Positions 5,772 through 61,529 of a DNA stretch of 64,000 bases are shown piece after piece. The DNA is taken from the NCBI GenBank assembly GCA_964580575.1, contig CAZOLJ010000006.1, positions 825 through 64,824 on the forward strand. The letters are read 5' to 3'. The translations under genes were made by a program, and so were the position numbers. The notes under the pieces were generated by a model. The model saw only the letters and a list, made by a program, of their open reading frames with translations. It was not told where the DNA came from and made no database searches. The number at the start of each line of letters is the position of its first letter. The first letter of the stretch is position 1. The DNA is from an uncultured Desulfobacteraceae bacterium. Its GTDB lineage: Bacteria; Desulfobacterota; DSM-4660; Desulfatiglandales; HGW-15.

Positions 5772-6383
5772 ATGGTAGTAGTGAGAGTTGGGGGCAAGGC
5801 GCCGGATTTTGAAGCTCCGGCTTATCAGAATGGGCAGTTCGGACAGATAAAGCTTTCGGACTATCTTGGGAAATGGGTAGCCTTGTGCTTTTATCCGGGA
5901 GATTTCACTTTTGTCTGAGCAACGGAATTGGCGGCAGTTGCCTCCAAATACAATGACTTTCAGGCCCTGGGCACGGAGATTCTCTCCGTGAGTGTGGACA
6001 GCCACTTCGTACACAAGATGTGGCAGGATAACGAGCTTTCCAAGATGGTCAAAGGCGGCGTGCCCTTCCCCATGCTGTCGGACCAGACCGGTAGAATCGG
6101 CACCGTGTACGGCGTTTATAACCAAGATGCAGGCGTCGAAATGAGAGGACGATTCCTCATTGATCCTGACGGCGTGGTGCAGGCCATCGAAATCCTGACC
6201 CCGCCGGTGGGCCGCAATGTACAAGAAATGCTCCGGCAGATCCAGGCCTTTCAGCATGTCCGAAACAGCAAGGGCACGGAAGCCACCCCATCGGGCTGGC
6301 AACCGGGAAGACCCGTTCTCAAACCGGGTCCGGATCTGGTCGGCAAAGTCTGGGAAGTGTGGAAAGTGGAAAACGCCTTTTAG
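5772..6383 (+). CDS. Peroxiredoxin (AhpC/Prx family) with selenocysteine at the peroxidatic position (UGA 5916-5918 recoded)
   Basis: Track ORFs 5670-5918 and 5928-6383 share a frame and are separated only by TGA. The joined sequence reads '[17 protein letters not shown]..', where the Prx consensus is FTFVCPTE. ATG at 5772 follows RBS AGGAGG. Hairpin at 5928-5947. Confidence 0.8.
5928..5947 (+). promoter_or_regulatory. Candidate bacterial SECIS hairpin for the Prx UGA
   Basis: TTGGCGGC-AGTT-GCCTCCAA forms an 8-bp stem with one mismatch, starting 9 nt after the UGA. Confidence 0.4.
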
Positions 6384-6491
6384 CACGCCGATTCAGCCCC
6401 AAGCGGGAAATACGATTGATCAAAAAGTCCAAACCGGTTGTTCCTGGGGCGGGGCCCATGGCGCCGCCCCTCTATTTTTTTGGATTTCAGA

Positions 6492-6920
6492 ATGCTCAGC
6501 TTTCTTGTTGGGATCGGGATTCTTACCGCCATCGTGCTTCTGTGGTTTTTGATCACCTACTGGCTGAACCCCCACGTGGAGTCTCCGGATGGAAAAGCGC
6601 GCATCACCGGATCGTGCGGAGATACCATGGAGATTTCTTTGAAGTTCCGCAACGAAAGGGTGACTGAAGCCGCCTATTGGACAAACGGCTGCGCTTACAG
6701 CTTGAATTGCATCTGTGCCGCTGCAGACCTGGCCAAAGGGAAGACTCCCGATGAGATCCTGGTGATCGATCCTGAACTCATCCAGCAGTCGGTAGGCGGT
6801 CTCCCTCAGGACCAGATGCATTGCGCCAGGTTGAGCGTGGAGACGCTCCACACCGCTTTGGAGGACTACATGCAAAACACGAGGGGAAGTGGGAAAAGGG
6901 CGAACGCCGGCAAGGCCTAG
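6492..6920 (+). CDS. Membrane-anchored NifU/IscU N-terminal-domain-like protein
   Basis: N-terminal TM helix, then 'GSCGDTMEISL...NGCAYS...HCARLSVETLHTALEDY', the three-Cys IscU-like pattern. Paralogue at 34758-35201. Start uncertain (6438 or 6492). Confidence 0.65.
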   Translation: MLSFLVGIGILTAIVLLWFLITYWLNPHVESPDGKARITGSCGDTMEISLKFRNERVTEAAYWTNGCAYSLNCICAAADLAKGKTPDEILVIDPELIQQSVGGLPQDQMHCARLSVETLHTALEDYMQNTRGSGKRANAGKA

Positions 6921-6921
6921 A

Positions 6922-8858: not shown

Positions 8859-9731
8859 ATGAGCTTTCAAAAGAGACTGTCGTCCGGTGAATTCGTGATT
8901 CTGGCCCAGATGAACACGCCCAAAGGCGTCAATATCTCCGAAATGGTCAACAACGCTCGTCGTATCAAAGAGCGCGTCCATGGGGTTGTCATCCCTGACA
9001 TGGACAACGGGGTCATGCGGATGAGTGCCATGGCCGGGGGAGCCCTCATGCGACAACAGGGGCTGGAACCCATCATGCACGTGTATGGCCGCGACAAGAA
9101 CAGGATGGCCCTCCAGGGAGATATTCTTGCAGCCTACGTGCTGGGCATCCAGACCCTGGTGGTCGTGAAGGGCGAAAACATGTCAGCCGGCGATCATGTC
9201 CAGGCCAAAACCGTAGACGATCTGGATGCGCTCAGCCTTCTGGAGGCTATCCGCTCCCTTAAGAAAGGCACAGACATGGCGGGTTTTGAACTCGACGGCA
9301 ACCCCGACTTCACGGTGGGCTGCACTCTGGGACCTTTTGTGGACGACCAAACGCTCGATCAGGAAATCGAGAAGGCGCAGATGAAGGTTGAAGCCGGCGC
9401 GCAATTCCTCCTGACTCCCGCCGTCTTCAACATCGATCGGTTCTCCTCCTTTCTGAATAAGGTAAAGGGGCTGGGAGTCCCCATTATCCCGACCGTATTC
9501 CTACTGAAGACGGTGGGCATTGCAAGGTACATGGCGACCTACGAGCCCGGCGCTTTCATTTCCGAGCCCCTGATCAAGCGCATGCGCCAGTCCAAAAATC
9601 GCGAAATGGAAGGCTTTATCATCGCAGGGGAAACCATTAAACAGCTCAAGGGTGTTGTGCAGGGGGTACAGATTGTCACCCTCGGATGGGAACACCGCCT
9701 GACGACGATACTGGACTACGCGGAACTCTAA
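8859..9731 (+). CDS. Methylenetetrahydrofolate reductase family protein (MetF paralogue)
   Basis: 290 aa. Sequence similarity to the MetF at 13985 in the 'RMSA/S..A...Q.GL.PI.H...RD.NR.ALQ.DILGA' block (seen in both ORFs). Confidence 0.8.
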   Translation: MSFQKRLSSGEFVILAQMNTPKGVNISEMVNNARRIKERVHGVVIPDMDNGVMRMSAMAGGALMRQQGLEPIMHVYGRDKNRMALQGDILAAYVLGIQTLVVVKGENMSAGDHVQAKTVDDLDALSLLEAIRSLKKGTDMAGFELDGNPDFTVGCTLGPFVDDQTLDQEIEKAQMKVEAGAQFLLTPAVFNIDRFSSFLNKVKGLGVPIIPTVFLLKTVGIARYMATYEPGAFISEPLIKRMRQSKNREMEGFIIAGETIKQLKGVVQGVQIVTLGWEHRLTTILDYAEL

Positions 9732-9803
9732 CCAGTGTCTCTTTCATTTCCTTTATCCCCATTCGTTGTTTGGGAGCGGCCATAGGCTTGCATTTGGATC
9801 GAT

Positions 9804-12800
9804 ATGAAAAACAATGAGATGATCAAGAACAGTAATAGAACCCTTGTGATCGGGGGCGGCGTAGGAGGAATCAAGACGGCGCTGGACCTTGCGGAGGCTG
9901 GCCGGGATGTCGTTCTCATCGACAAAGCCCCGGCGATCGGTGGTCTCATGACCCAATTGGACCGCACCTTCCCGACCAACAACTGTGACCTGTGCACCCT
10001 TTCTCCTCACCTGGCGGAAAGCGGCAGGCAGCTCCACATCGAGCTTCTCCCCTTGACTCAATTGGCCGCCGTGGAAGGGCAAGCCGGAGCGTTCAGGGTC
10101 ACCCTGAAGTCCGCTCCAAGGTTCCTTGACCTTTCGAAATGCACGGCTTGCGGGGAGTGCCTCAAAGAATGCCCCGAGTGTGTCCGCTTCACACCGGGCT
10201 TGGACCACCGGGCGCCCACCTGCATGCGCTATCCCAGAGCCACTCCCTATGCCTACTCCATTGACATCGAAAAGTGCACGGACCTGGACCGATTGGTTCA
10301 TGTCTGCCGAGCGGACGCGATCCTGCCCAAAGATTCGGAGACAATGCGGGAGATTACGGTGGGCTCGATCGTGCTCGCGGCCGGAGCCGGCGTGTTCGAT
10401 CCGGCAGCGCTGGAGGACTATGGGTACGGCACGCGGCCGAATGTGCTGACGGGCCTGGAATACGAGCGAATCCTCTCGGCTTCAGGGCCGACTTTGGGGC
10501 AATTGGTCCGGCCCTCGGACGGAAAACAACCCAAAAGGGTGGCCTGGATCCAGTGCGTGGGATCGCGAAGTGTGAAGGAAGGGTGTCTCCCCTATTGCTC
10601 CAGCGCCTGCTGCATGTATGCTCTGAAAGAGGCGATGGTGACCAAGGAGCGATTCCACGAAGACATAGAGACCGTGATCTTCTACATGGACATGCGCACG
10701 TCGGGGAAAGACTACGAGCTCTATTTGAACCGGGCTAAGGAACAGTTCGGCGTTCGCCTGGAACGAACCCGGCCTCACACCGTGGAGACCGTCCCCGGCT
10801 CCGATGACCTCTCCATCACCTATGTTTCTGCAGGTGCCAGCCTGCCCAAGAAGGAAGTTTTCGACATGGTGGTTCTTTCGACGGGATTTGTGATTCCCCC
10901 GGATGCGGTGGAACTGGCGGCCCGCCTGGGCATCAAGCTCAATGAACATGCTTTCGCTAAAACCGGAAGCTTCAGCCCTGTGGCGACCTCTCAACCGGGC
11001 ATCTACGTGGTCGGGCTCTCCGAAAGCCCCAAGGACATTCCCGAAACCATGGTGCAGGCAAGCGCCGCAGCGTGCATGGCCGCTCAGTACCTCACGAGCG
11101 CGGAGCCGACCGCCGAAGAAGAGGAAGAGGGGGACTTGCCGGCCGAGCGGGATGTGAGCTCTGAGGAGCCGAGGATCGGAGTCTTCATCTGCGACTGCGG
11201 GACCAACATCGGCGGTCTCCTGGACGTGTACCAGTTGGTGAAATATGCGGCTCGGCTGCCCCAGGTGGTTGTCTCTGAGATGACCGGGCGAGGATGTTCC
11301 AGGGAATCCCTGGAGGCGATTCAGCGTTCGATTCAGGAAAACTCTCTGAACCGCGTGGTGATTGGAGGATGCTCCCCAAGGACTCACGAAACCCTTTTTC
11401 AAGATACCGTGCGCACGGCCGGCCTCAACAAATACCTGGTCGAAATGGCTAACATCCGCGATCAGGACACCTGGGTGCACCTGGATCAGCCCGAGGAGGC
11501 CCTGAACAAGGGAAAAGACCTGACCCGTATGGCGGTGTCGGCGGTGGCCCTGGCCCACCCGCTCACGGAACACGTTCTCCCCATGAACAAGAACGCGCTG
11601 GTGGTGGGGGGAGGCGTTGCAGGAATGAACGCGGCCCTGGCCCTGGCCGACCAGGGCATGAGGGTCTACCTTGCGGAGAAAGCCGCAGCCCTTGGAGGCG
11701 TGGCCGTCGACATCCGCAGGACCCTGGAAGGAGAAGATGTTAAAGCCTATTTGACCAACCTCATCGATCGCACCCTGCACCACCCCAACATCCAGGTCCT
11801 GACGCGGTCCGTCATCGTGGATCACAGCGGCATGCCCGGCCTCTTTAAGACCGGCCTTCAGGTAGGTCCCCAGATGTTCTACCGGCAATTCACCCACGGC
11901 GTCACCATTCTGGCAACAGGCGCGGTGCCGAACCGGCCGCAGGAATACCTTCTGGACGACCACGACGCCGTTCTGACCCAGCTGGACCTGGACCGCCTCC
12001 TCGAAGAGCAGCCTGACAAAGCCAGGGGCTGGGAGAAGGTGGTCATGATCCAGTGCGTGGGCTCCCGGTGTCCTGAAAACCCCAACTGCTCGCGCATTTG
12101 TTGTCAGTCGGCCGTCAAGAACGCCTTGAGGCTGCTCGATCTCAACCCAGCCATTCAGATCTCCGTGCTCTACAGGGACATGCGGACCTACGGGTTCCAA
12201 GAAGACGCTTATCGAAAGGCCCGGGAGCGGGGTGTCCTTTTCTTCCGCTTCGAAGAGAAAGACAAACCCGTTGTCGAGGCGGACGGGGAAAGGGTAAAGG
12301 TCTCCTTTACGGATCCGATTCTAGAGAAAAAGATGACCGTATCCGCCGACAGCCTGGCCCTCAGCACCGGGCTCATTGCGGATGACGAAGGAACCGAAGA
12401 CCTGGCCATGGTGTTCCGCCTGGCCCGGACCCCGGACGGCTTTTTCCTGGAAGATCACGTCAAGCTCCGGCCTGTGGACCTGCCGGTTCCCGGGTTTTTT
12501 GTGGCCGGCACGGCCCATTCGCCCAAGACCATCCGGGAGAGCATTGCCCAGGCCCAGGCCGCGGCTGGCCGCGCGCAGACGCTTCTGGCGAGAAACGTGA
12601 TCAACCTGGGTGCGGCAGTCGCAAGGGTGGACGGCAAGAAATGCGCGGCCTGTCTCATTTGCGTCCGGGCCTGTCCGTTTGATGTTCCGTTTATCAACGC
12701 GGACGGCTATTCGGAAATCGATCCGGCCAAGTGCCACGGCTGCGGCGTGTGCGCTGCCGAATGCCCGGCCAAGGCCATCCAGCTCATGCAGTATGAAGAC

Positions 12801-12851
12801 GATCATCTCATGGCCAAACTCGACGGCCTGTTGGAAGGGGTGCTTCAGTGA
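9804..12851 (+). CDS. hdrA: Large HdrA-like flavoprotein (heterodisulfide reductase subunit A family, two FAD/Rossmann modules)
   Basis: 'VIGGGVGG' and 'VVGGGVAGM' dinucleotide folds, 'FPTNNCDLCTLSP', 'WIQCVGSR...YCSSACCMYA' and a C-terminal 2x[4Fe-4S] motif. Cys, not Sec, at the HdrA thiol position. Confidence 0.85.
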   Translation: MKNNEMIKNSNRTLVIGGGVGGIKTALDLAEAGRDVVLIDKAPAIGGLMTQLDRTFPTNNCDLCTLSPHLAESGRQLHIELLPLTQLAAVEGQAGAFRVTLKSAPRFLDLSKCTACGECLKECPECVRFTPGLDHRAPTCMRYPRATPYAYSIDIEKCTDLDRLVHVCRADAILPKDSETMREITVGSIVLAAGAGVFDPAALEDYGYGTRPNVLTGLEYERILSASGPTLGQLVRPSDGKQPKRVAWIQCVGSRSVKEGCLPYCSSACCMYALKEAMVTKERFHEDIETVIFYMDMRTSGKDYELYLNRAKEQFGVRLERTRPHTVETVPGSDDLSITYVSAGASLPKKEVFDMVVLSTGFVIPPDAVELAARLGIKLNEHAFAKTGSFSPVATSQPGIYVVGLSESPKDIPETMVQASAAACMAAQYLTSAEPTAEEEEEGDLPAERDVSSEEPRIGVFICDCGTNIGGLLDVYQLVKYAARLPQVVVSEMTGRGCSRESLEAIQRSIQENSLNRVVIGGCSPRTHETLFQDTVRTAGLNKYLVEMANIRDQDTWVHLDQPEEALNKGKDLTRMAVSAVALAHPLTEHVLPMNKNALVVGGGVAGMNAALALADQGMRVYLAEKAAALGGVAVDIRRTLEGEDVKAYLTNLIDRTLHHPNIQVLTRSVIVDHSGMPGLFKTGLQVGPQMFYRQFTHGVTILATGAVPNRPQEYLLDDHDAVLTQLDLDRLLEEQPDKARGWEKVVMIQCVGSRCPENPNCSRICCQSAVKNALRLLDLNPAIQISVLYRDMRTYGFQEDAYRKARERGVLFFRFEEKDKPVVEADGERVKVSFTDPILEKKMTVSADSLALSTGLIADDEGTEDLAMVFRLARTPDGFFLEDHVKLRPVDLPVPGFFVAGTAHSPKTIRESIAQAQAAAGRAQTLLARNVINLGAAVARVDGKKCAACLICVRACPFDVPFINADGYSEIDPAKCHGCGVCAAECPAKAIQLMQYEDDHLMAKLDGLLEGVLQ

Positions 12852-13291
12852 AATCCTTTGAACCCGTTATCGTGGCGTTCTGCTGCCATTACTGTGCCTA
12901 CACGGCGGCGGACATGGCAGGGAGTATGAGACGCTGCTATCCTCCTAACGTGCATATCCTCCGGGTCCCTTGCTCAGGGAAGGTGGACGCGATTCATATC
13001 ATGAAGGCTTTTCAAAAAGGCGCCGACGGCGTCTATGTGGCCGGTTGCCTGGAAGGGGACTGTCACTTCAAGGACGGGAACCTCAAGGCGGCCCGTCGGG
13101 TGGCCTATGTGAAGAAGCTCCTCGATGAGATCGGCGTGGGCGGGGAGCGACTTGAAATGATGACCCTGTCTGCGGGCATGGGCGAGCGTTTTGCGGTCAC
13201 GGCCTCCGAATTCACCGAGAAAATTCGGAGCCTGGGACCCAACCCGGTGAAAGGGGCGGCACAAGCCGGGCAAACGGCTGCGGCCGGTTGA
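12848..13291 (+). CDS. mvhD: MvhD-like protein (methyl-viologen-reducing hydrogenase delta subunit family), Cys form
   Basis: 'FCCHYCAY..AD.AG', 'RVPCSGKV' and 'GADGVYVAGCLEGDCHF'. GTG start overlaps the hdrA stop. Confidence 0.85.
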   Translation: MKSFEPVIVAFCCHYCAYTAADMAGSMRRCYPPNVHILRVPCSGKVDAIHIMKAFQKGADGVYVAGCLEGDCHFKDGNLKAARRVAYVKKLLDEIGVGGERLEMMTLSAGMGERFAVTASEFTEKIRSLGPNPVKGAAQAGQTAAAG

Positions 13292-13319
13292 TCGATGAGG
13301 TGAAGGAGAAGAGGAAACA

Positions 13320-38290: not shown

Positions 38291-39604
38291 CTATTCTTCT
38301 TCCTCCTCTTCCCCCTCCTCGTCAAAAACGATCTCATCCCTTTCGTACTGGGCATCCCTCAGGGCATGAGCTTTTTCCACTTCCTCTTGGCTCCAGGGCT
38401 CCACGATGAGCGAGTCGGCCACGAGCTCCCACAGGTATTTGGTCTCGATGTCCAGGCCGAATTCCTTGGTTAGGCCTTTCATGATCTGGTCGCGACAGTT
38501 GTGGCAGGGCGCAATGACCAGTTTCGCTCCTGTGTCCTTGATCTGTTGGGCCTTAACCCTTCCGTAGTAAATCCTCTCGTCCGAATAGGGCATGGCCCAT
38601 GCTCCGCCGCCGGCTCCGCAGCAGTAGTTGTTCATCCGGTTGGGGTCCATGTCGACAAAACGCTCGCAGCACTGCTGGGTGATCCACCTCGGCTCTTCAA
38701 AGTAGCCGTGACCGAAAGCTTTCTGACTCTTCCTGCCATAGTTGCAGGGATCATGCACGGTCGCGAGTTCCTCATGGATCGTTTTATCCAATTTGATTCT
38801 TCCCGTCTCGATGTATTCTTTGAGAAGATCGTGAACGGAGACGACCTTGTATTTCTTGAAAACTTCGGGATACCAGTTTTGCAGACCAAGCCTGGTCGCA
38901 TAGTAGGCGTGCCCTCACTCCGGCAAAAGGAGCGTCTTGCACTCCAGCCTTTCCATGTGTTCGACGATGCGGCCCACGAGCGTCTTCATGGACTCGTCAT
39001 CGCCCGAGAAGAGGCCCCAGTTCACTCCCTCCCAGTTGTAGGAGGGCACGGTCCAGTCCTCCTTGGCCGCATAAAAAATGCGCCACCAGAATTTCATGTC
39101 ATCGGGCTCGCCGAAAGGCTCCTTGGAATTGACGGTGATCAGCACATTGGCACCCTTTTTGTCCACAGGCACATAGAACCCTGGGAAACCATCCGCTTCA
39201 AGCTCTTTGCCCAGGTCGGCGAGAAGAAAAAGGAAATCCGCCTTGGGAATCCCAAGGTTGTTCCCCCTGTTCAGATCCATGACCACGCCCTTGTGGATAG
39301 GGCCGGGGACCTTGTCTCTCGCGCGAAGGGTCCTGGCCCTTCGCATCATCTTGAGGATTTCCACGCCCTGGGGACAGGCGTATTCGCAACGGCCGCACAG
39401 GGTGCAGATCCAGGGGAACCTCGAATCAATGAGCTCCTGGTCCAATCCCAGGGCAGCCATACGCACGGCCTTACGCGGGTCCATGTTGTCGACGCCGGTA
39501 ACCGGGCAACCGCTGGCGCAGGTGCCGCAGGTGAAACAGACATCCGCCCACTCGGGAGACACTCTCAGTTTGCTTTCTTTACGGTTAATCACAACGGGTT
39601 CCAT
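38291..39604 (-). CDS. HdrD/DsrK/GlpC-like Fe-S (CCG-domain) oxidoreductase with selenocysteine (UGA at 38915-38917 recoded)
   Basis: Track ORFs 38915-39604 and 38291-38791 are in one frame. Translating through gives '...KTLLLPE-U-GHAYYATRLGLQNWYPEVF...'. The N-terminus has 2x[4Fe-4S] (CxxCxxCxxxCP); the C-terminus has 'NYCCGAGGG' and 'PCHNC' (CCG domain). Hairpin GACCA-GGCU-UGGUC lies 17 nt after the UGA (plus coordinates 38884-38897). Acidic poly-E tail. Confidence 0.8.
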
Positions 39605-42254: not shown

Positions 42255-43205
42255 TCATTTGACAAAGTCGTTATAGTCGTCCACTCGGTAAACATCCAGA
42301 GGCGGCCGCTGATCCATGCGGGTTCCGGCCTCCCAGCCGAAGAGCTCAAAAGCATCCTTGTTCAGCTTTTTGGTGAACGGCCTCATGGAGATCCCCACGG
42401 GGCAAACCCGTTCGCAAGCCCCGCAGTCCGTGCACCTTCCGGCACAATGGTAGGCTCGCAAAAAATGAAAGGTCATGGTGTCTACAGGGTCCGTGCTCTT
42501 CCCCACCCACTGGGGCCGCGACTCATCAACAAAGCAGGTCGGACAGTAGCAGAGAGGGCAGGCGTTCCGGCACGCGTAGCATCTGAGGCAGGATGAAATG
42601 AGCTGAGTGAAAAACTTCCGTTTTTCCTCGGGGCTCTTTCTCTCCAACACGTCAACGTCTTTGAAGGCGTTGACGCCCTCTTGTTCCGGCACCGGGTCGG
42701 CGACCATCTCGTCGTATTCCACAGGGTTCCGATGAAGGCAAGTGGAGCAATTGGTCCTCAAGAAATCTTTTTTCTTGAAGGTCTCCTGAAAACCGTTTCC
42801 GCTCACCGTGAAGGAGTCCTTGCTTTCAGTGACCTCCAAAATTTCTTTATTCCCCATCGTCCTCTTCACGGCTCGGTGGTCGATCATGCCGGTGCAGGGA
42901 ACGCCCACGATGTAAAGCTGTTCCCGCTTAATCTGGTTTTCGATGATGTGGGTCACGATGCTTCTGGAATTGCATCCATTGGCCACAATTCCGACGCGGT
43001 CGGTGCGCTTAGTCAGATAATTGCAGAGGTTCAGACCACAGTGGCTGTCCCAGTGAAGCAGGTCCACCTCCGCAGGATGCTTGATCAGCACCGGTTCATT
43101 CATCATGGGCACTGAGCCCTTCTGGTAGCCGATGAAAACGTCGACGGTTCCCTTCTCCAGGAGCTTTCGAGCGATGTCTCTGATTTTCTGAGTATACTCA
43201 AGCAT
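42255..43205 (-). CDS. FrhB/FdhB-N-terminal-like Fe-S protein (FlxC-like)
   Basis: 'CLRCYACRNACPLCYCPTCF' and 'CTDCGACERVCPVGI' with an N-terminal FrhB-like region. ATG overlaps the mvhD stop (TGATG). Confidence 0.7.
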   Translation of the reverse strand: MLEYTQKIRDIARKLLEKGTVDVFIGYQKGSVPMMNEPVLIKHPAEVDLLHWDSHCGLNLCNYLTKRTDRVGIVANGCNSRSIVTHIIENQIKREQLYIVGVPCTGMIDHRAVKRTMGNKEILEVTESKDSFTVSGNGFQETFKKKDFLRTNCSTCLHRNPVEYDEMVADPVPEQEGVNAFKDVDVLERKSPEEKRKFFTQLISSCLRCYACRNACPLCYCPTCFVDESRPQWVGKSTDPVDTMTFHFLRAYHCAGRCTDCGACERVCPVGISMRPFTKKLNKDAFELFGWEAGTRMDQRPPLDVYRVDDYNDFVK

Positions 43206-43636
43206 CAAACCACCTCAGCTCTTTTCTTAACAAGATAAGTTGCCTGACCGGTCTCCTTAACCGCCTTGATGACTTCGGTGGCAACCTCCACGAACTTCGT
43301 TGCTTCGGCAGAGGAAATCCACGAAAAGTGCAGCCTTCCCGGTTCCATCCCCACATGCTCGATCAGATTCTTGAACAGAGCGAACTTGCGTCTTGCGAAG
43401 TAATTACCTTCCAGGTAATGGCAGTCGCCCGGGTGTCACCCGGAAACCCAGACGCCGTCGGCGCCGTGCCGGAAGGCGGCGAGGATGAATTTGGGGCTCA
43501 CCCGGGCAGAGCAGGGCACCCGAATGACCCGGATATTGGATGGGTACTGGAAGCGGCTGACCCCTGCCAGGTCTGCCGCGCCATAGCTGCACCAGTTGCA
43601 CAAGAATGCAGTTATCTTAGGTTGCCAATCGTTCAT
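43205..43636 (-). CDS. mvhD: MvhD/FlxD-like protein with selenocysteine (UGA at 43436-43438 recoded)
   Basis: The track ORF ends at '...[10 protein letters not shown]'. Read-through gives '[23 protein letters not shown]...' to TGA at 43205. The Cys paralogue at 12848 has 'GVYVAGCLEGDCHF'. Hairpin AUUACCU-GGA-AGGUAAU lies 16 nt after the UGA (plus 43403-43419). Confidence 0.8.
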
Positions 43637-49454: not shown

Positions 49455-49868
49455 CTACGCCCTGGTTGTCTGATCCGTACGGGGAACACCAACCGCTTGA
49501 TTGACGACAGGGCAGTTTTCAACGCACACGCCGCAGCCTGTGCACAGATCCATGTTGATGCTCCGGGCCCGTTTTCTTATTTTCACTTTGAAATCTCCAG
49601 GGCTTCCTTCTACGGACTCAAGATCAGAGTAAGTGATGAGCTCGATATTAAGATGCCGGCCGACCTCGACCAGTTTGGGGGAGATGATTCACATGGCGCA
49701 GTCGTTGGTGGGAAAGGTCTTGTCCAATTGAGCCATGGCCCCGCCGATGGCAGGGGATTTCTCAAGAAGGTAGACATAATACCCGGAATCCGCCAAATCA
49801 AGGGCGGACTGCATCCCTGCGATACCCCCGCCCACAACCAGAACCGATCCTTTCACGCTGCTGGACAT
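49455..49868 (-). CDS. Stand-alone HdrA N-terminal module with selenocysteine (UGA at 49689-49691 recoded)
   Basis: '[47 protein letters not shown]...' continues to '[12 protein letters not shown]' and TAG at 49455. It aligns to residues ~10-120 of the HdrA at 9804 ('FPTNNCDLCTLSP'). Hairpin CUGGUCG-AGGU-CGGCCGG lies 15 nt after the UGA (plus 49656-49673). Confidence 0.75.
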
Positions 49869-51955: not shown

Positions 51956-51971
51956 AGCATATGTCGTGCCA
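51956..51971 (-). promoter_or_regulatory. Candidate sigma-54 promoter upstream of the dual-receiver gene
   Basis: Minus strand reads TGGCAC-GACAT-ATGCT (perfect -24, one mismatch at -12), about 70 nt upstream of the ATG at 51886 and directly downstream of an NtrC-family gene. Confidence 0.55.
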
Positions 51972-52297
51972 GGTCTTTGTGCTGCATATAACCAATTGAT
52001 AATAGGCCACTTTGTTTAATAATCCCTTTTGAGAACCTTGTCGGTGTATAGAATAAATATTCAGGCTGAAAAGGTAGAGTGCGAAAGGTACGAATGGTTT
52101 GTCATCTTTCGAGTGAGCAGGGAGAAGCGTTCTTCCATAAACATTCCAAGAAATTGGCTTGACTCCGTAGGAACATAAGCGTGGAGGGGAAAGACTGGAA
52201 AACCAAAATGAGAATCTCTAAAATGATGTATATGTTCGCTATACAGGGTATGATTTCTTCAAAAGGATCCTGCTCTGAGAAAAACTCTCGTGCTCTT

Positions 52298-53716: not shown

Positions 53717-55157
53717 TCTGCTCTCCTCTGGGGATGGGGAGATGAATCCTGAACGTCGTTCCTTCACCTACCTTGCTCTCCACGTCTATGGAACCGTCAT
53801 GTTGCTCAATGATTCCGTGCGTAATGGCAAGACCAAGGCCTGTCCCGGTCTCCTTGGATGTGAAGAAGGGATCGAAGATCCTGTCCAAAGCCCGCTCCGG
53901 TATGCCGCCGCCCGTGTCGCTGACCGTGATTTCTACCACCTGTTTTTCGGGAACCAGACGGCTGGCAAAGCGAATCTTTCCTCCAGGATCGGTCGCGTCG
54001 ATGCCGTTGATGGCGAGATTGATGAGGCATTGCTGGATCTGATCCTTGTCGATGTCCACCAAAGGCAGTGGCTCAGAGAGAACGGCCTCAAAAGCGACGT
54101 CCTTGAAAGCGGCTTGCTTTCTGGTGAGGGCCATGGAGTCACGAACAACCTGGTTGATGTCATGACGCGCCTTTGCCGGTTTGCTCTGACGCGCAAAATC
54201 GAGGAGGCTGGTCACGATTTTGCGACACCGCAGAGTCTCATTGGCAATCGTCTCAAGCTCGCGATAGTTGGGATCTTCAATGTCCATTTCCTCCTGAATC
54301 AGCAGGGCCGTGGTGAGAATAGTGGTCAGAGGGTTATTGATCTCATGGGCCACGCCTGCGGCCAATTGGCCCACGGAGGCGAGTTTCTGCTGCTCCACGA
54401 GTTTCTTTTGAAGGAGAATGTCCCTGGTAATGTCCTTTGAAATCTCTATGACACCCTGCACCGCATGGTCGCTGAAGATAGGATAACAGGAAATCGAATA
54501 GTAGCGTGGGTTGTCTTCTTTGTCCCGATGGACGTGAGTGGCTTGTGAGGCTCTGCCGGTGCCGAGGCATTCTATGAGAGGGCAGGGGTGTTCTTTCCCA
54601 TCGCAGGGTTTATTCCGGTCGTGGGAAAGCTCGTAACAGTGCATGCCCAAGGCGGAAGCCCTGTTTAGCCCCATCTTCTTGAGCAATGTGTCATTGATGT
54701 CGAGAATGCCGTAGTCCCTTCCGATGAGCATCACGTCTTCGTGAAAAAAAGCATTGATGACCGCCTCGTACAGAGTCGTCATTCTCGCAAGCTCCTGTCG
54801 GGTCCTGTCCAGGACTCTGTCCCCGGCAACAAGCTCGCCCAAGAGTTCCGCCGCTCCATCGTCAAGAAAAATAACCTGTTTCCCTTTTTCTTGAAGCACC
54901 GTCTTGGATACACCCGTATCGTCGGTCAGGCTGACCACCAGGTCAATGTCCTTTCGCTGGAGTACCTTGTGCAGATCCCGCGTCACGGATACGCTCCGGT
55001 CCCCTGCATGGGTCACGGCCGATGCCTCTTCTCCCGAGTCTACGATCGCGACGATGGCGGGATCAAGTGTCTCGAAAACGCGTTTTTGAAAGCGATCCAG
55101 AAAATCCATGCATTTCTGCCCGCTACCAATCACGACAATCTTCAGCTTCTTCCTCAC
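53709..55157 (-). CDS. Sensor histidine kinase (N-terminal Rossmann-like or unknown domain + PAS + HisKA/HATPase)
   Basis: H-box 'GVAHEINNPL', 'DTGGGI' and 'GTGLGL'. PAS with 'CYEL..(x10)C(x6)CP'. Confidence 0.85.
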   Translation of the reverse strand: MRKKLKIVVIGSGQKCMDFLDRFQKRVFETLDPAIVAIVDSGEEASAVTHAGDRSVSVTRDLHKVLQRKDIDLVVSLTDDTGVSKTVLQEKGKQVIFLDDGAAELLGELVAGDRVLDRTRQELARMTTLYEAVINAFFHEDVMLIGRDYGILDINDTLLKKMGLNRASALGMHCYELSHDRNKPCDGKEHPCPLIECLGTGRASQATHVHRDKEDNPRYYSISCYPIFSDHAVQGVIEISKDITRDILLQKKLVEQQKLASVGQLAAGVAHEINNPLTTILTTALLIQEEMDIEDPNYRELETIANETLRCRKIVTSLLDFARQSKPAKARHDINQVVRDSMALTRKQAAFKDVAFEAVLSEPLPLVDIDKDQIQQCLINLAINGIDATDPGGKIRFASRLVPEKQVVEITVSDTGGGIPERALDRIFDPFFTSKETGTGLGLAITHGIIEQHDGSIDVESKVGEGTTFRIHLPIPRGEQNA

Positions 55158-55364
55158 CCTTTTTGTGGCTCCTTAAAGGTCCCTGTTAAGCGAATACGCA
55201 TCTCCGAGAGCGCGCTGAGAAGCCCCTTTGTACAGGCCCCTCTACAAAATCATGGTAGGCCAGTGAGGATCTAAAATCAAGAAGGAACAGGCTCGGGAGG
55301 TTGGGAAGGCTCCGGATGGTCTCGGGGCCTGGCGAAGGACCACAGAGGCCCTCCGAGGGCGTCC

Positions 55365-56441
55365 TCATCCGGAGATCTGCGAGGTGAACGGCAAAATGAT
55401 TCTGAAAGTGCTTCCTTTGCCGGGGCTGCTGAGGACCTCGATTCTGCCGTCGTGCTCCTTCACGATTTCATGAACTACCATCAGTCCGAGGCCGGTGCCG
55501 TCCGTTCCCTTTGTGGAGAAGAAGTGGGTGAAGATTTTCTCAGAGGTGGCGTGGTCCATCCCAATCCCGTCATCCTCCACCTCGATGACGAAATGACGGC
55601 GGTCATAGAAATCGGCTTTCACAGCGATGGCGTGAGAGTCTTTTCCTTTATCCCTGCGGCACGCTTCCATGGCATTGGAAAGAAGATTGATCAACATCCG
55701 GCGCATGGCGCCGGGATCCATATGAACCACAGGAAGACGAGGGTTCGTGTTCGCTCTCAGTTTGCACTCGATCGACTGAGCTTTTTCGTAAAAGAATGCG
55801 ATGGACTCCATGAGCATTTTATCAAGGGCAATCGCCTCATAGACAGGCTTCCTTTTCTTGGTGGAATACAGGATATTCTGGACCAGGCCGGAAATCTCCT
55901 GGATGTTTTTTTTGACCACAGACCATCCTTTTTTCATCAGTTCCTGATCTTGGTCCTTCAGCGCTTCATCCACCACATAGGCGCCTCCTTGGAGACCCTC
56001 CAAAATGTTCTTGATATCATGGGAAAGGATCGCCACAGACTGACCGAGGAGAGTGAGTCCCTTCTGGGTCTCTTTCACCTTGCTGATGTTGGACGACAGC
56101 TCCAGAACCGCAACGACATTGCCCAGGGCATCCGTAATGGGGGAAGAGTAAATCACCACGTGGACGGGGCCGCTGCCCCCCAGTTGCACGACCTCTTCGC
56201 TGACGTGGGCCTTCTTGTCCTGAAAGGTCTCCCAGACAGGGCAGGAAGAGCATCGGGCGGAACTCCTTAAATAGACTTCATGGCACTTCTTGCCGATCGC
56301 ATCGCCGAAGTCATTTCGGAAGGTCTGGTTGGTTTGCAGGATGGTGAAAGATCGGTCTTGAATGGAGACATAGCAAGGAAGCAGATCGACAATCGCCTTG
56401 TACCCAAGGTCAATGAGGGTGGGATGAGTTTTTTCTTCCAT
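55365..56441 (-). CDS. PAS sensor histidine kinase
   Basis: 'LSHDIKN' H-box, 'DDGIGM' and 'GTGLGL'. PAS with 'CHEVY..(x10)C(x2)CP'. Confidence 0.85.
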   Translation of the reverse strand: MEEKTHPTLIDLGYKAIVDLLPCYVSIQDRSFTILQTNQTFRNDFGDAIGKKCHEVYLRSSARCSSCPVWETFQDKKAHVSEEVVQLGGSGPVHVVIYSSPITDALGNVVAVLELSSNISKVKETQKGLTLLGQSVAILSHDIKNILEGLQGGAYVVDEALKDQDQELMKKGWSVVKKNIQEISGLVQNILYSTKKRKPVYEAIALDKMLMESIAFFYEKAQSIECKLRANTNPRLPVVHMDPGAMRRMLINLLSNAMEACRRDKGKDSHAIAVKADFYDRRHFVIEVEDDGIGMDHATSEKIFTHFFSTKGTDGTGLGLMVVHEIVKEHDGRIEVLSSPGKGSTFRIILPFTSQISG

Positions 56442-56488
56442 GGTCCTGAACTCTCCGGCTGGTGCGAACCCTCAAGGTCCGGTTGGCC

Positions 56489-56881
56489 TTATTTCAGGCA
56501 GTTCCGAACGGCATCCAGGATTTCATCAGGCTCAGGCGGCTTCTCGATGTAAGCTGCAGGTTCAGGGATTTTCTCTCCCTTGTATTCATCCAGCACTTTC
56601 TGGGAATGAAAAAAGGTTTTTTTGGACAGCGCTGACAACATGATCACAGGAATATCCTTCAGTTCAGGGTCGTTCCTTAACTCGCGATAGAGGTTGATCC
56701 CGCTCTCTTTGGGCATCATGATGTCCAGGATAATGAGAGCCGGCCTGCTCTTGCGGGCCACCTCCAGCCCCTGGAAACCGTCCTGAGCCGTGAGAGGCTT
56801 AAAGCCGTTGGTTTCCAGCAGGGTGGTGATAAAGGTTCTCATGTCCAATTCGTCGTCAACTACAAGGACTTTCTTCGCCAT
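56489..56881 (-). CDS. Single-domain response regulator
   Basis: 'VLVVDDE...ILDIMMP...K'. ATG at 56881 after RBS GGAGGG. Confidence 0.85.
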   Translation of the reverse strand: MAKKVLVVDDELDMRTFITTLLETNGFKPLTAQDGFQGLEVARKSRPALIILDIMMPKESGINLYRELRNDPELKDIPVIMLSALSKKTFFHSQKVLDEYKGEKIPEPAAYIEKPPEPDEILDAVRNCLK

Positions 56882-57022
56882 CTGCGTTTCCCTCCATGAA
56901 ATCATGTTGCTTCGCTCGATGATTTCATCATGCGCGACTACGTCGCTTGTTAATTTGGATAAACGCCTGTGCCTTTGTGAAGCGGCGCAGCCGCGTTTCA
57001 TGAAATCGCGTGAGCGATTTTA

Positions 57023-57526
57023 TCAATACATGCTTCCAGGCAGAGTGAATTGTTTTGCCGGATTGCGAATTGCGATGACATGGCAATGGGCGTATTTGGA
57101 TACATTGGCCACCGTGCTTCCGTGAATCATGCGATCCTGTTCCGCCTTGCCTAGGGCCCCCATGACGATCACATCAATGGCGTTTTTCTTCGCATAACGG
57201 ATGATTTCCACATCGGGCGACCCGCTCTTGACGACGAACAAGTAGTTCTTGAAATCCCCGAGCTTCTTCTCGTACTCCTCCTTGAGCGCCTCCCTGGCCC
57301 GCTTCTCCAAGTCTTCGTCATAGAAGGCCTCACCGCCGGGAGACCCTGAAGGAACATGTTCGTCAACCACATTCCTCAGATAGGAATAGGAAGAGTGGGG
57401 GACATGAAAAATGTGGAGCTTTGCACCATGCTTCTTCGCAAGGTCGAAGGCGTGAAGGAAGGCGATGTTGGCGTCCTCTGAAAAATCCGTGCAGAAAAGG
57501 ATGTTCTTATATTCTATCATGATCAA
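57023..57526 (-). CDS. Universal stress protein (UspA family)
   Basis: 'ILFCTDFSE.A..A...A..LA...GA.L...HV' and 'VMGA.G......GS.A..V......CHV..I'. Confidence 0.85.
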   Translation of the reverse strand: MIMIEYKNILFCTDFSEDANIAFLHAFDLAKKHGAKLHIFHVPHSSYSYLRNVVDEHVPSGSPGGEAFYDEDLEKRAREALKEEYEKKLGDFKNYLFVVKSGSPDVEIIRYAKKNAIDVIVMGALGKAEQDRMIHGSTVANVSKYAHCHVIAIRNPAKQFTLPGSMY

Positions 57527-57550
57527 CCCCTCTCAAAAGAAATGATGTTT

Positions 57551-58696
57551 TCATGCGGATGGCTTCTTTTCGGGAAGCCTCACCCTGAAGACCGTGCCGC
57601 TCCCTTTCTCGGACGAGAGATCCATGACCCCTCCGTGCTCGTCAACGATCTTCTTGGCGATCATCAAACCAAGACCCGTGCCCCTCGAGCCCTTTGTGCT
57701 GAAAAAAATCTGAAAAACCTTCTTTCTCGTCTCTTCATCCATGCCGCAGCCATTGTCAATCACCTGATATTCCACGGCCCACCCCTGAGGCTTCGACGTG
57801 CGAAGGGACACCTCGCATGTTCTTGCAGCGCAGGAAATGTCTGTGCATGCATCAATCGCGTTGGTCAACAGATTGAGGAGAACCCGGTGAATCCCTTCGC
57901 GGTCAAACCACACGTGTGGCAAACCCAGAGCTGGAGCAATCTTCAGGGCTAGCCCTAACTCTGTGGCCCGGGGAAGCATCAGATCATAAACCTCCTTGGC
58001 AGGGCCATTAGGATCGCACAGCTCATACTCGGGCTCCCTCTCCTTGGCGTAGTTCAGGAGATCCACCGCCATGCCTTTGATCTTCTGAACGTTTCCCTTG
58101 ATCATTTGCCAGCCTTGGCTCAGATAGGTTCTGTTCTCCAGGTCAATGCCTTTTTCAAGGACGTACATCCCGCCTGTCAGGCCGGCCGTGATATTCTTGA
58201 TGGCGTGGGCCAGCGCTGCCACGGTCTGGCCCACAGCCGCAAGCCTTTCCGCTTCCACAAGCTTCCGGCTCTTCTCCTCAACCAGCTTCTCCAGGTTTTC
58301 CGTGTACTCCCTGAGCGTCTTTTTGTAGGAAATCCTCTCCAGGGCCCTTCGGAGGGCAATGTCGAGCGTTTCATCGTGGATGGGCTTTGTGATGAAATCA
58401 GACGCATCGTACTTGAGACTCTGTATGGCAAGCTCCATTTCGCCGTGGCCCGTGATCATGATCACTTCGGTGTTGGGGCTTTCTTCCTTAACGCGCTTGA
58501 GCAGTTCGATCCCATCCATCCCGGGCATCTTGATGTCGGTGAGGATGACCTCGGGATCCGCTTCATGGAAAACCCGAAGCGCCTCTTCACCGTTTTGAGC
58601 GGTCAGTACCCGGTAGCCTCGGTCGGCCAGAGAGATGCCCAGGACTTTGAGAATGCCCGGTTCGTCATCAACAAGGAGCACTTGTTTTTCCATCAA
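57551..58696 (-). CDS. Hybrid receiver-histidine kinase
   Basis: N-terminal 'VLLVDDEP...LTDIKMPGMDG', then H-box 'LAHAIKN', 'DNGCGM' and 'GTGLGL'. Confidence 0.85.
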   Translation of the reverse strand: MMEKQVLLVDDEPGILKVLGISLADRGYRVLTAQNGEEALRVFHEADPEVILTDIKMPGMDGIELLKRVKEESPNTEVIMITGHGEMELAIQSLKYDASDFITKPIHDETLDIALRRALERISYKKTLREYTENLEKLVEEKSRKLVEAERLAAVGQTVAALAHAIKNITAGLTGGMYVLEKGIDLENRTYLSQGWQMIKGNVQKIKGMAVDLLNYAKEREPEYELCDPNGPAKEVYDLMLPRATELGLALKIAPALGLPHVWFDREGIHRVLLNLLTNAIDACTDISCAARTCEVSLRTSKPQGWAVEYQVIDNGCGMDEETRKKVFQIFFSTKGSRGTGLGLMIAKKIVDEHGGVMDLSSEKGSGTVFRVRLPEKKPSA

Positions 58697-60180
58697 GCCT
58701 CGTTAATCCGGGGAAACCTGATGATAAAGGTCGCCCCTTCCCCTTCGTTGCTTTCCACATGGATGGTGCCGTCATAATCCTGCACAATGCCATAGCTGAT
58801 GGAAAGACCGAGTCCTGTTCCCTTGCCCACCTTTTTGGTCGTGAAGAAAGGTTCGAATATTCTGTGGAGAATGGCTTCAGGAATTCCTGTTCCGGTATCG
58901 CTCACTTCAATGGTGACCATCGCATCTTCGGCCTTGGTTCTCAAGGTGATGCGTTTTGCTTCTTCTTTGTGGTCGCCTTGCTCCCATTTCTTCTCGATCG
59001 CATCTCGGGCGTTGATCAGAAGGTTAACGAAAACCTGCTCCAGCCGATTAGGATCGGCCAGAATCGGGGGAAGATCCTCACAAAAACCCTCCACCACCTC
59101 GATTTCTCGCAACTTCAATTGCTGCTTGAAAAAGTCAACCGCCCGTCTGAGGACATCGTTGACCTGAACCTTTTCTCTTGCCACGTCTGATTTTCGGCCG
59201 AAGTCTCTCATGTGGCCGATGATTTTCGAGGCCCTGTCCACATGGGTGTCAATCTCTTCGGCCATGGTTCCGAGAATGCCTGCCTTGATCTGCTCCCCGC
59301 CGCCGGCCTTCCTTCGCAAGAAACTGCTCGCTGTCTTGATGACGGAAAGAGGCTGATTGAGTTCGTGGGCGATGCCTGTCGCCATTTCCCCAAGAGTGGT
59401 CATTTTGCCGGCCTGGATCAACTGCTGCTCGGCCATCAAGCGCACCGTGATGTCACTGGTGGTGACAAGAAAGACCTTCCAGCCATTGAATTCAGAGGAA
59501 GAAATGTGAATGCTCACATAGATGACCTTCCCGTCCTTGCGCACCTGTCTCGCCCGGTCGATGATGTTTGTGGATTTGAGACTGACCTCATAGCTCTTCC
59601 GATCATTGCCCTCAAATAGATCAAGGAAGGAGGTCATATAAATCTCGTCTTTGGAGAACCCATAGACAGCGGCGACGCTTTCATTACAGTCGAGAATCTT
59701 GAGGTTCTGCGCGTTCAAAACAAAAACCGGATTGGGAATCGTGTTGAAGATGATGCGGTATTTTTCTTCCGACTTCCTGGCCTCTTTTTCCAGCAATCTC
59801 AGATGGGTCAAGTCCAAACTCATTTCCATGACCGCGGTGACTTCCCCTTTTGAATTCTTGATGGGTGAGGTCTTCACCAGCCAGTAGGTCTCGGTGCCGT
59901 CCTTGGTCACGGCCTGTTCTTCGCTCACATGGGGTCGTCCGTCTTCAAAGGTCTTGAGGACAGGGCAGTCAGGGCATTTTTCAGAACGGCCTTTGTAAGC
60001 CTTGAAGCAGAAATCTCCCGGTTCCGGAGAGAACATCTTTTCGAACTCCCGGTTGTATCGCAGGAGCTTCAGATCCCGATCCTGGACAGTAATGTAGCAG
60101 GGAGACTCCTCAAAGAGCGTCTGGTATTCGTTCTGGTGGCGATTGGATGGTTCTTGTTTAGCCTTGATCAAAGGGTCCAT
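58693..60180 (-). CDS. PAS-PAS sensor histidine kinase
   Basis: H-box '[10 protein letters not shown]', 'DTGTGI' and 'GTGLGL'. The first PAS has 'CFKAY..(x10)C(x2)CP'. Confidence 0.85.
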
Positions 60181-60245
60181 CGAATTGATCGCATCCTTTT
60201 TTTCGATTCCGCTCTCCCCTGGGGTAACGCTCTCCGGTCGCCGGC

Positions 60246-61529
60246 CTACTCCTCCTCTTCTTCCTCCTTGGGAATCATGTGTTCCGGGATCTCCATGTGC
60301 TCGGCGATCACTTCCTTGAAGTGGACGGCCTTGATGTCGAGCTTGTGCTCCTTGGCCAGGTCCCGGATCTGGTCGATGCAGTTGTGGCAGGGCACCAGAA
60401 CGATCTTGGCGCCTGTTTCGCGGATCTGCTCGGCCTTGATCTTTCCCGAAGCCAGGCGGTACTTTTTCATTTCACCGCCCATGGGCATGGCCCCGCCGCC
60501 GCCCCCGCAACAGTAGTTGTAGTTGCCCTGGTACTTCATGGGGCGGAAATCCTCCGACACCATTTCAGCCAGATGCCGGTTTTTCTCTGCGAGTCCTCCG
60601 CTCCGGATGACATTGCAGGGGTCCTGGACCGTGGTGGGCACTTTGATCTTCTCTTTGAGCTTGATCCGGCCGTCCCTGAGGTAATCGTGGAAGAGTTCCA
60701 CCGAGTGAATCACTTCCTGCTTTGGCTCGTATCCCAACCAGGTGGGCGCTTCGTACCGAAGCGCACGATACGCGTGTCCTCACTCGGTTATGGCGACTTG
60801 TTTCACCTCCAGTTCCTCGGCGCGCTTGAAGGTGTTTTCAACGATCATGCGAGCGGTAGGCGCATCATTGATGAACATGGCCAGGTTCGTACCGTCCCAT
60901 CCTTTCTCGCTCGGGACAGTCCAGTCCTCCCCGGCGACCGTAAAGATTTTGGCCACCTCCATGATGTCCTGAGGGTAGAACTTGGGCTCCCTGGCATTCA
61001 CCGTGTACATGATTTTGGCGCCCTTCTTGTCGATGGGGATCTTGACGCCCACGACTTCCGCCGCGGCCTCCTCCTCGCACCACTGGATGGTCTCGACCCA
61101 GTCTTCCTTGGACACGGCCATCTGATTGCCGGTGAGCTTGTAGTTTTCGACGGCTTTCTTGAGACCTTCAGGCGCGATTCCCAAGGAGGTCAGCAGGCCC
61201 CGGAGGGTGGAGATGAGAAAGCCGATGTCAATGCCGAAGGGACAGTAGAGGGTGCAGCGCCTGCACATGTTGCACTCATAGTAAATGGTTTTGTAGATCT
61301 CCTGGAGGTACTCCTTGTCCACCCGGCCTTTTTTCTTGAGCAGGTCTCTCAAGAATCTCACTTTGTAGGCGGGGATCATTTTGGGATCTTTCCCGCTCGC
61401 CAGATAGAAGTGGCAGGTGTCGGCGCACATGCTGCAGTGGGTGCAGGTTTCAATCCACGTCTTCAAACGGGCACCCAATCGGGGTTTGAGGAAATCCATG
61501 ATCGCTTTCGGGTTCACGTCTTCAGTCAT
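60246..61529 (-). CDS. DsrK/HdrD-like Fe-S (CCG-domain) protein with selenocysteine (UGA at 60780-60782 recoded)
   Basis: Track ORFs 60780-61529 and 60246-60737 are in frame. Read-through gives '...KQVAITE-U-GHAYRALRYEAPTWLGYEPK...'. 'CTHCSMCADTC' and 'CNMCRRCTLYCP' are N-terminal; 'NYCCGGGGG' and 'PCHNC' are C-terminal. Perfect 8-bp hairpin GCGCUUCG-GUA-CGAAGCGC lies 15 nt after the UGA (plus 60746-60764). Poly-E tail, as in 38291-39604. Confidence 0.8.

Follow-up and report, generated by a model that had tools for sequence, protein, structure and literature searches.

How should a TGA codon be read when it stands in frame inside an otherwise continuous gene, at a position where homologues encode cysteine? 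The question is raised five times by a stretch of 64,000 nucleotides (the window, which here means the whole stretch analyzed) from contig CAZOLJ010000006.1 of an uncultured Desulfobacteraceae bacterium. A preliminary description of the window had placed such codons at 5916 on the plus strand and at 38915, 43436, 49689 and 60780 on the minus strand, and had interpreted them as selenocysteine (Sec) codons. All five triplets are TGA in the window sequence, and each locus encodes an uninterrupted protein when the TGA is read through. It is highly probable that UGA is recoded to Sec in all five genes, in each case with a downstream Sec insertion sequence (SECIS) hairpin. This interpretation is supported by conservation of the TGA, by the pairing of Sec with Cys among homologues, and by constraint on the hairpins.

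Five genes with TGA at a cysteine position

The reading frames are family-typical and continuous across the TGA, as the preliminary description held; the evidence comes from the continuous translations, from Pfam domains that span the codon, and from Cys at the site in paralogues, solved structures or homologues. The Sec-coded sites correspond to the peroxidatic Cys in PrxU, to Cys197 in HdrA, to a conserved Cys in MvhD/FlxD, and in two HdrD/TmcB-like proteins to the Cys of 'TE-C-GHA'. An in-frame UGA aligned with Cys in homologues (a Cys/Sec pair) is present in all five. Orthologues with TGA were found in other organisms for every gene, for the TmcB-like gene in the form of only two further sequences. 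When Cys-containing orthologues were compared, TGA proved to be kept near-universally in HdrA-N, MvhD and the HdrD-like gene, Cys was the alternative, and the hairpin was mostly broken in the Cys-forms. The window itself has a G+C content of 52-58%. Its nearest relative over a 1077-aa marker is the metagenome-assembled genome (MAG) MFD02416.bin.2.150, with 86% amino acid identity, and the same marker is ~76% identical to MAGs of Desulfatiglandaceae/Desulfobacteraceae.

The gene at 5670..6383 (+) encodes a PrxU-type peroxiredoxin of 237 aa, in which Sec83, encoded by the TGA at 5916..5918 (+), is the peroxidatic residue. The AhpC-TSA Pfam domain extends over residues 40-172, across U83, and U83 aligns with the peroxidatic Cys in the solved structure of human Prx2. 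Against the PrxU equivalog model NF040737 (peroxi_PrxU) the protein scores 404.9 bits, above the curated cut-off of 270. Among the 120 nearest protein clusters, 99 are listed with 'W' at the site and 17 with Cys, and two start after it. The DNA was read at 11 of the 'W' loci (L169-L179) and at L037, and the 'W' codon is TGA in these orthologues. PrxU was first described as the selenocysteine peroxiredoxin of Eubacterium (Peptoclostridium) acidaminophilum. The window protein is like PrxU in passing the equivalog model, in having Sec for the peroxidatic Cys within 'FTFV-U-xTE', and in having no resolving Cys; the corresponding segment reads 'GTEATPSGW', and Ala or Val occupies the position in 116/120 relatives. 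It differs in its origin from Desulfobacterota, in a 35-residue Lys/Glu-rich N-terminal extension, and in its location within an oxidative-stress island that includes a Fur/PerR-family regulator, a catalase, a di-haem cytochrome c peroxidase and a NifU-like protein.

Three of the five genes are grouped in a single run of Hdr/Flx genes 11.6 kb long. On the minus strand, this array consists of hdrA_N (Sec), a nuoE-like gene, a nuoF-like gene, a nuoG'-hdrA fusion (1077 aa), flxD (Sec), flxC, flxB, flxA, a response regulator and an HdrD-like gene (Sec). The hdrA N-module gene (49455..49868, -) encodes 137 aa, with Sec60 in 'DCAM-U' (codon 49689..49691, -). Residue 60 maps to residue 197 of the HdrA structure 5odc_A, the Cys197 of methanogen HdrA, and an all-Cys HdrA encoded in the same window (9804-12851) has 'NNCDLC' where HdrA-N has 'NDCAMU'. 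The MvhD/FlxD-like gene (43205..43636, -) encodes 143 aa, with Sec67 in 'SG-U-HPGDCHY' (codon 43436..43438, -). Its FlpD Pfam domain (PF02662) spans residues 8-130, across U67, scores 178.2 bits against a gathering score of 22.3, and covers the profile completely (positions 1-123 of 123). U67 aligns with the Cys of 'GGCHLGDCHY' in solved MvhD structures, and the MvhD paralogue in the window (12848-13291) has 'AGC' in place of 'SGU'. Orthologues came from 80 loci, recovered by scanning the surroundings of the 1077-aa HdrA-like gene in a single genome for each GTDB species. Of 64 HdrA-N orthologues, 62 have TGA at the site, the exceptions L073 and L040 having TGT or TGC, and the MvhD site is TGA at 56/60 orthologous loci, with Cys codons in the other four.

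In methanogen HdrA, Cys197 is a ligand of the N-terminal cluster of the partner subunit (PMC9012536), and in M. maripaludis HdrA the residue is Sec197, which may take part in a Cys-Sec relay close to the bifurcating FAD (PMC13518236). The window Sec, in a thioredoxin-reductase-like FAD domain, is at the same CxxU/Cys197 position as in the Sec-HdrA of Methanococcales (PMC13518236) and of Syntrophobacter/Syntrophus (PMC1794560), and the gene is likewise clustered with Sec-MvhD, as in the described hdrA-frhD operons. Unlike known Sec-HdrA, the window gene is split and lacks the N-terminal Fe-S domain, and the cluster contains no hydrogenase or hdrBC genes. HdrA-N scores 161 bits against the curated model of full-length HdrA, far below its cut-off of 1100, the gene being split and the remainder fused to a NuoG-like N-terminus. 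The MvhD/FlxD protein shares with the FrhD/MvhD/VhuD selenoproteins (PF02662) a full FlpD domain and Sec at a Cys that all solved MvhD structures share. However, it contains only one Sec, its context is of the flx type (flxD-C-B-A) in place of a hydrogenase, and its score against the VhuD model (125 bits) is below the cut-off of 215.

The division of hdrA (43754-49868, -) is a feature of the region in its own right. The 137-aa Sec N-module is followed by the nuoE-like and nuoF-like genes and then by the 1077-aa fusion gene, which joins a NuoG-like 2Fe-2S/4Fe-4S N-terminus to the remainder of HdrA (two FAD-type modules). This order is common to 37 GTDB species genomes, whereas a contiguous Sec-HdrA is present in 13 and other arrangements (1.7 or 3.2 kb) in 12. 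Since hdrA-N, nuoE and nuoF share one frame with TAG between, read-through of UAG or pyrrolysine at 49455 was considered and rejected. The TAG at the end of the N-module is a real stop because the orthologues end in TAA, TAG or TGA.

The two remaining genes encode Fe-S oxidoreductases. The HdrD/TmcB-like gene (38291..39604, -) encodes 437 aa with Sec230 in 'PE-U-GHA' (codon 38915..38917, -), and its product consists of an HdrC-like 2x[4Fe-4S] N-half and one intact CCG domain. A metagenome scan yielded 80 orthologues with 81-96% identity, and the codon is TGA in 80/80; more distant homologues have TGC or TGT. The TmcB/HmcF-like gene (60246..61529, -) encodes 427 aa with Sec250 in 'TE-U-GHA' (codon 60780..60782, -). 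The site is Cys ('TECGHA') in 118/120 of the nearest clusters, and TGA in two independent assemblies (L163 and L164). Its putative partner is a TmcC/HmcE-like membrane anchor (61576..62241, -), which scores 212 bits against TmcC, below the cut-off of 240, and 158 bits against HmcE. A 221-aa membrane-anchor gene is also upstream in relatives L165, L166, L180, L181 and L183.

The preliminary description had called the second of these proteins DsrK-like, a name better replaced by TmcB/HmcF-like. Against the NCBIfam models, the protein scores 450 bits with HmcF and 433 with TmcB, compared to 192.5 with DsrK, and its neighbour is TmcC/HmcE-like. The HdrD-like protein scores 213 with HmcF, 190 with TmcB and 165.6 with DsrK. 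Neither protein reaches the curated cut-offs (735 bits for TmcB NF045724, 750 for HmcF NF045711 and 400 for DsrK NF045796). As judged from these profile scores, the 60246-61529 protein resembles the TmcB and HmcF families and has a TmcC-like neighbour, but is not an equivalog, and the HdrD-like gene is a more distant member of the same broad family.

The motif E-U-G-H is common to both proteins, as is the combination of an HdrC-like N-half of the di-cluster type with a CCG domain. 'UGH' is the motif given for the selenoprotein family of GlpC-like Fe-S oxidoreductases (PMC13188914), and by motif and domain architecture both proteins belong to it. Within this family the TmcB/HmcF-like protein is distinguished by its TmcC-like membrane partner and by near relatives that mostly have Cys; the other is of a soluble type, and all of its recovered orthologues have Sec. 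Of the cysteines in the first CCG domain, only the invariant Sec/Cys position survives in both proteins. In 9ojn_A, the counterpart of U250 of the TmcB-like protein is the first Cys of 'CPHC', in the first CCG domain. Since a search of the PDB with the family profile reached only 9ojn_A and HdrC, and not HdrB, the structural role of this Sec is one that we infer.

A functional link of the HdrD-like gene to the flx cluster was considered and rejected. The gene adjoins flx genes at only 6 of the 47 metagenome loci with enough upstream sequence (among L083-L162), all of them close relatives, and in L125 (2000-10600) it is isolated and faces a convergent response regulator-MetF-MetV cluster. The response regulator that adjoins the HdrD-like gene in the window is of the DVU0259 family.

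The hairpins downstream of the TGA codons

A stem-loop follows each TGA, as had been claimed. In four of the five the stem begins 15-16 nt past the TGA (15 in the HdrD-like, HdrA-N and TmcB-like genes, 16 in MvhD); in PrxU it begins at 9 nt. The hairpin of PrxU (5928..5947, +) is UUGGCGGC-AGUU-GCCUCCAA, that of the HdrD-like gene (38881..38899, -) is GCGACCA-GGCU-UGGU(C)UGC, the core of MvhD (43403..43420, -) is C-AUUACCU-GGA-AGGUAAU, that of HdrA-N (49656..49673, -) is CUGGUCG-AGGU-CGGCCGG, and that of the TmcB-like gene (60746..60764, -) is GCGCUUCG-GUA-CGAAGCGC. In this order, the loops start 17, 22, 23, 22 and 23 nt after the UGA, and each apical loop (AGUU, GGCU, GGA, AGGU, GUA) has a G followed by G or U. 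The consensus of bacterial SECIS (bSECIS) elements is a loop of 3-9 nt that has a G within its first two positions and then G/U, and a spacing of 16-37 nt (PMC13188914). All five hairpins fit this geometry. Compared to the SECIS of E. coli fdhF, which is bound by SelB (textbook knowledge; PMC13188914), the window hairpins are alike in lying in the coding sequence just 3' of the UGA, in having a small loop with G then G/U, and in a spacing also within 16-37 nt. They differ in having no sequence similarity to it, short stems (7-8 bp), and no match to an Rfam SECIS family.

The description of the hairpins as stable is accurate but carries little weight, since none is exceptionally stable and their energies are not outliers. 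The folding energies are -8.4 (PrxU), -8.5 (HdrD-like), -9.1 (HdrA-N) and -11.6 kcal/mol (TmcB-like), and in MvhD the downstream 42 nt fold at -10.5 kcal/mol. Relative to 4068 in-gene control positions, the energy percentiles of the five are 0.39, 0.13, 0.26, 0.28 and 0.02 (joint P ~0.02). Moreover, 3-13% of the in-frame control positions, and 2/26 true TGA stops, also have a bSECIS-like hairpin. Because the pattern turns up at control positions too and the energies are ordinary, the hairpins alone are weak evidence, and it is their conservation that gives them significance. Stability was therefore discarded as the main evidence and conservation was used instead.

Selection acts on the hairpins at the level of RNA, as seen from frozen synonymous sites and compensatory changes. 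In both HdrA-N and MvhD, codons +6 to +11 after the TGA make up exactly the 18-nt hairpin. Across distinct Sec-form sequences (n=59 for HdrA-N, n=52 for MvhD), the synonymous entropy of these codons is at most 0.12 bits, compared to 0.7-2.5 bits in the flanks. At codon +9 of MvhD, Asp replaces Glu in five sequences, a change that alters loop bases only. In the HdrD-like gene, 99.1% of cells are paired across 67 distinct sequences; a C-G pair is compensated to U-A in 20 sequences, the 3' half of the change costing Gly to Ser, and a G-C pair to A-U in one. The loop AGUU of the PrxU hairpin is invariant in four distinct sequences, and compensatory changes are present at 3/8 stem pairs, by which the stem sequence of the window copy is altered relative to its PrxU relatives. 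The 19-nt hairpin of the TmcB-like gene is identical in all three Sec-forms, whereas flanking synonymous sites differ.

The hairpin also tracks the TGA. It is altered in five close Cys-form orthologues of HdrA and MvhD and in 3/4 Cys-form lineages of the TmcB-like gene, often by synonymous changes that keep the amino acids. Both Cys-form HdrA-N orthologues (L073 and L040) have a broken hairpin, in L040 by synonymous changes only, as LVEVGR is still encoded (via CTC GTT GAG GTA). The 18-mer is changed in each of three close Cys-form MvhD sequences (L027, L040 and L075). The four Cys-form lineages of the TmcB-like gene are 76-80% identical to it, and in three the hairpin is destroyed though ALRFEA or a similar sequence is encoded.

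SECIS elements of Archaea are placed in the 3'-UTR. In this respect the window HdrA-N differs from the Sec-HdrA of Methanococcales, its putative SECIS being bacterial and inside the reading frame instead of archaeal in type. By analogy with bacterial systems, we infer SelB-dependent insertion at the five codons and a chemical role for each Sec. A stem-loop inside the coding sequence of the mRNA, whose apical loop contains G(G/U) and starts 17-23 nt past the UGA, would act as a bacterial SECIS that recruits SelB-GTP-Sec-tRNA(Sec), and the ribosome would insert Sec rather than terminate. A UGA that lacks such an element, including the terminator of the MvhD gene, would be read as a stop. In each protein the selenol would take the place of a functionally critical thiol. 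In PrxU, Sec would be the peroxidatic residue, and in MvhD/FlxD it would stand at a conserved Cys of a [2Fe-2S] protein. In HdrA-N, it would stand at the equivalent of Cys197, which in methanogen enzymes is a cluster ligand or part of a Cys-Sec redox relay beside the bifurcating flavin. In the HdrD/TmcB-like proteins, Sec as the surviving Cys of the degenerate first CCG domain would presumably take part in disulfide reduction together with the CCG-bound catalytic Fe-S cluster.

How the codons are likely read

Several results weigh against Sec recoding. No selA, selB, selC or selD is encoded in the window, and the Sec machinery is assumed; no tRNA-Sec is present in the window or in 55 related loci, and the window has no tRNA gene of any kind. 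The window matches no Rfam family at the gathering score, and no SECIS family even at E values up to 10. The hairpin energies are individually ordinary, and the MvhD core alone, at -4.5 kcal/mol, misses the bSECIS criterion of -7.5. Only two other Sec-form sequences of the TmcB-like gene were recovered (P0040 and P0061, which are 249-aa stubs and correspond to L163 and L164), and the closest Cys-form relative of this gene (L165, 80% identity) keeps the hairpin intact.

The alternatives that survive best involve cysteine. In subgroups of Desulfobacterales and Syntrophobacterales, a selC* gene encodes a tRNA(Cys) with an opal anticodon (UCA) that mimics tRNA(Sec) and is accompanied by selB*; in Desulfobacterales cysS* is found as well, and Cys was inserted at a Sec-UGA in a test in E. 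coli (PMC5389517). Dual decoding, in which the ordinary Sec pathway operates alongside selC* tRNA(Cys)UCA and SelB* so that Sec- or Cys-enzymes are made according to the selenium supply, is improbable, with a small chance of being correct. That the UGA/hairpin sites are decoded wholly or partly as Cys by this tRNA is quite improbable. The relatives of the window are Desulfobacterales/Desulfatiglandaceae, and homologues function with Cys at each of the five sites, both of which fit Cys decoding. However, neither a tRNA nor a selB-like gene is in the window, and the retention of TGA over TGC across 60-80 lineages argues for selenium as the selected residue. All genomes of the selC* type also had a complete Sec apparatus (PMC5389517), so decoding as Cys would come in addition to Sec decoding and not in its stead.

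Recent switching between Sec and Cys could have given rise to the TmcB-like gene, since its closest Cys-form relative still has an intact SECIS-like hairpin. Among the Cys-forms with 80% identity (L165-L168), a perfect 8-bp hairpin (GCGCTTCGGTTCGAAGCGC) follows the TGC of this relative. It is either the remnant of a recent change from Sec to Cys or a pre-existing hairpin that eased a change from Cys to Sec. A remnant SECIS after Sec/Cys conversion is a pattern that has been described previously (PMC1794560).

Three further explanations have a negligible probability. The first is that the TGAs are sequencing or assembly errors, or mark pseudogenes, for which decayed genes elsewhere in the window (a CoA-disulfide-reductase-like remnant at 25719-26250 and a truncated sigma-54 activator at 26956-27891) offer a precedent. 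For each gene, nevertheless, 56-80 independent genomes or metagenomes have TGA at the same codon, together with intact flanking coding sequence and a conserved hairpin, and sequencing errors and pseudogenes are excluded because the TGA is conserved across dozens of independent genomes and assemblies. The second, that UGA is a sense codon for Trp or Gly (tables 4 and 25), is hardly credible despite the 'W' recorded in 99/120 of the nearest PrxU clusters. This 'W' is TGA in the DNA and falls on the peroxidatic Cys, where Trp would kill catalysis; 26 other predicted genes of the window end in TGA, as does the MvhD/FlxD gene itself; orthologous stops interchange TGA, TAA and TAG; and homologues have Cys at the sites, never a standard-codon Trp or Gly. 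The third, that the TGAs are true stops and each gene yields two separately translated polypeptides, has a parallel in the hdrA of this cluster, which is truly split elsewhere by nuoE/nuoF between the N-module and the rest, but is virtually excluded by single Pfam domains that run across the TGA, motifs that carry on past it (U-GHA, U-HPGDC, U-ATE), the lack of a conserved start codon or ribosome-binding site after it, and orthologous sites that are never TAA or TAG, unlike real stops.

The count of recoded genes in the window is five. Other TGAs in a systematic scan of the window were rejected as recoded sites. The TGA at 42255, with 319 aa upstream and 383 aa downstream in the same frame, is the real stop of flxC, as TAA or TAG stands there at 50/56 orthologous loci and the frames differ. 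The TGA at 20331 ends a complete OsmC gene and is followed by a separate enoyl-CoA hydratase gene. The remaining in-frame candidates are in shadow ORFs opposite confirmed genes.

Density, annotation and other features of the window

The identification of Sec in this window is correct, but it recognizes, on a contig without annotation, biology that was already known, and is ordinary for the lineage, because all four families are published selenoprotein families that are richest in Deltaproteobacteria. Prx, HdrA, FrhD/MvhD and the Fe-S oxidoreductase (GlpC) all appear in a 2006 table of 25 bacterial selenoprotein families (PMC1794560), and the 'CxxU' motif of HdrA is also given in PMC13188914. 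In the deltaproteobacterium Syntrophobacter fumaroxidans the selenoprotein genes number 31, with 7 HdrA, 8 FrhD, 3 GlpC and a Prx among them, and glpC-hdrA-frhD operons as well as arrangements of the form 'hdrA_N-unknown-hdrA_C' have been described (PMC1794560). The preliminary description had called the density unusual. It is indeed high, as five selenoprotein genes in 64 kb are ~10 times the mean density of the richest known genomes, on the assumption of a genome size of ~6 Mb. It is not surprising for Desulfobacterota, with genomes of 56-63 selenoprotein genes in current catalogues (PMC13326102), or for classic clustering families (PMC1794560, PMC13188914), and clustering of selenoprotein genes like that in the 11.6-kb stretch has been described before (PMC1794560). 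That sulfate reducers use selenium heavily in their machinery for electron bifurcation and peroxide defence is already established, and the window is a further example.

The main value of the result is for annotation. Mis-annotation by naive gene callers had been predicted, and public calls do truncate or mistranslate these genes. On contig Ga0207193_1000534 (metagenome 3300020048), of which the window is a part, the Joint Genome Institute (JGI) calls give a 59-aa HdrA-N, an MvhD of 66+47 aa and an HdrD-like protein of 229+166 aa. Relatives of the TmcB-like protein are called as 249-aa stubs, and those of PrxU as 151-aa stubs or with 'W'. For the PrxU relatives (P0121-P0240), which are on mostly short contigs, the gene callers used a table with UGA as Trp, and the resulting proteins are full-length but wrong. 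The five genes of the window, which serve energy metabolism and stress defence, and hundreds of their public relatives are stored either in truncated form or with Trp falsely entered for the catalytic residue, and as a consequence metabolic reconstructions of Desulfobacterota by homology under-count Hdr/Flx/Tmc-type modules and selenium dependence.

The window also contains a second, all-cysteine module (8859-14908, +), with an MTHFR-like gene, a double HdrA (1015 aa), MvhD, a MetV-like gene and a MetF-like gene. It resembles the MetFV-HdrA-MvhD clusters of methylene-tetrahydrofolate reductase, and is the source of the two Cys paralogues compared above. Within the flx genes, a near-perfect hairpin of ~100 nt (42160-42260), composed of GGAGU/ACUCC-type repeats, lies between the stop of flxC and the start of flxB. 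It folds at -42 kcal/mol (z = -5.6), and the one Rfam model that it matches does so equally on both strands, a reflection of the palindrome only.

Signs of gene decay are present at 25719-26657 (-) and 26956-28264 (+). A CoA-disulfide-reductase/NADH-oxidase-like gene is reduced to ~70 N-terminal residues ('MKFDLLIIGGGPAG...YCAMPY') and a C-terminal dimerisation piece in another frame, and an intact thioredoxin gene (WCAPC, 26286-26657) adjoins this remnant. The sigma-54 activator is cut at position 132/168 of its ATPase domain. Finally, PAS histidine kinases, response regulators and sigma-54 activators are unusually dense around the redox clusters, at 16475-19497, 23149-24417 and 50210-60180.

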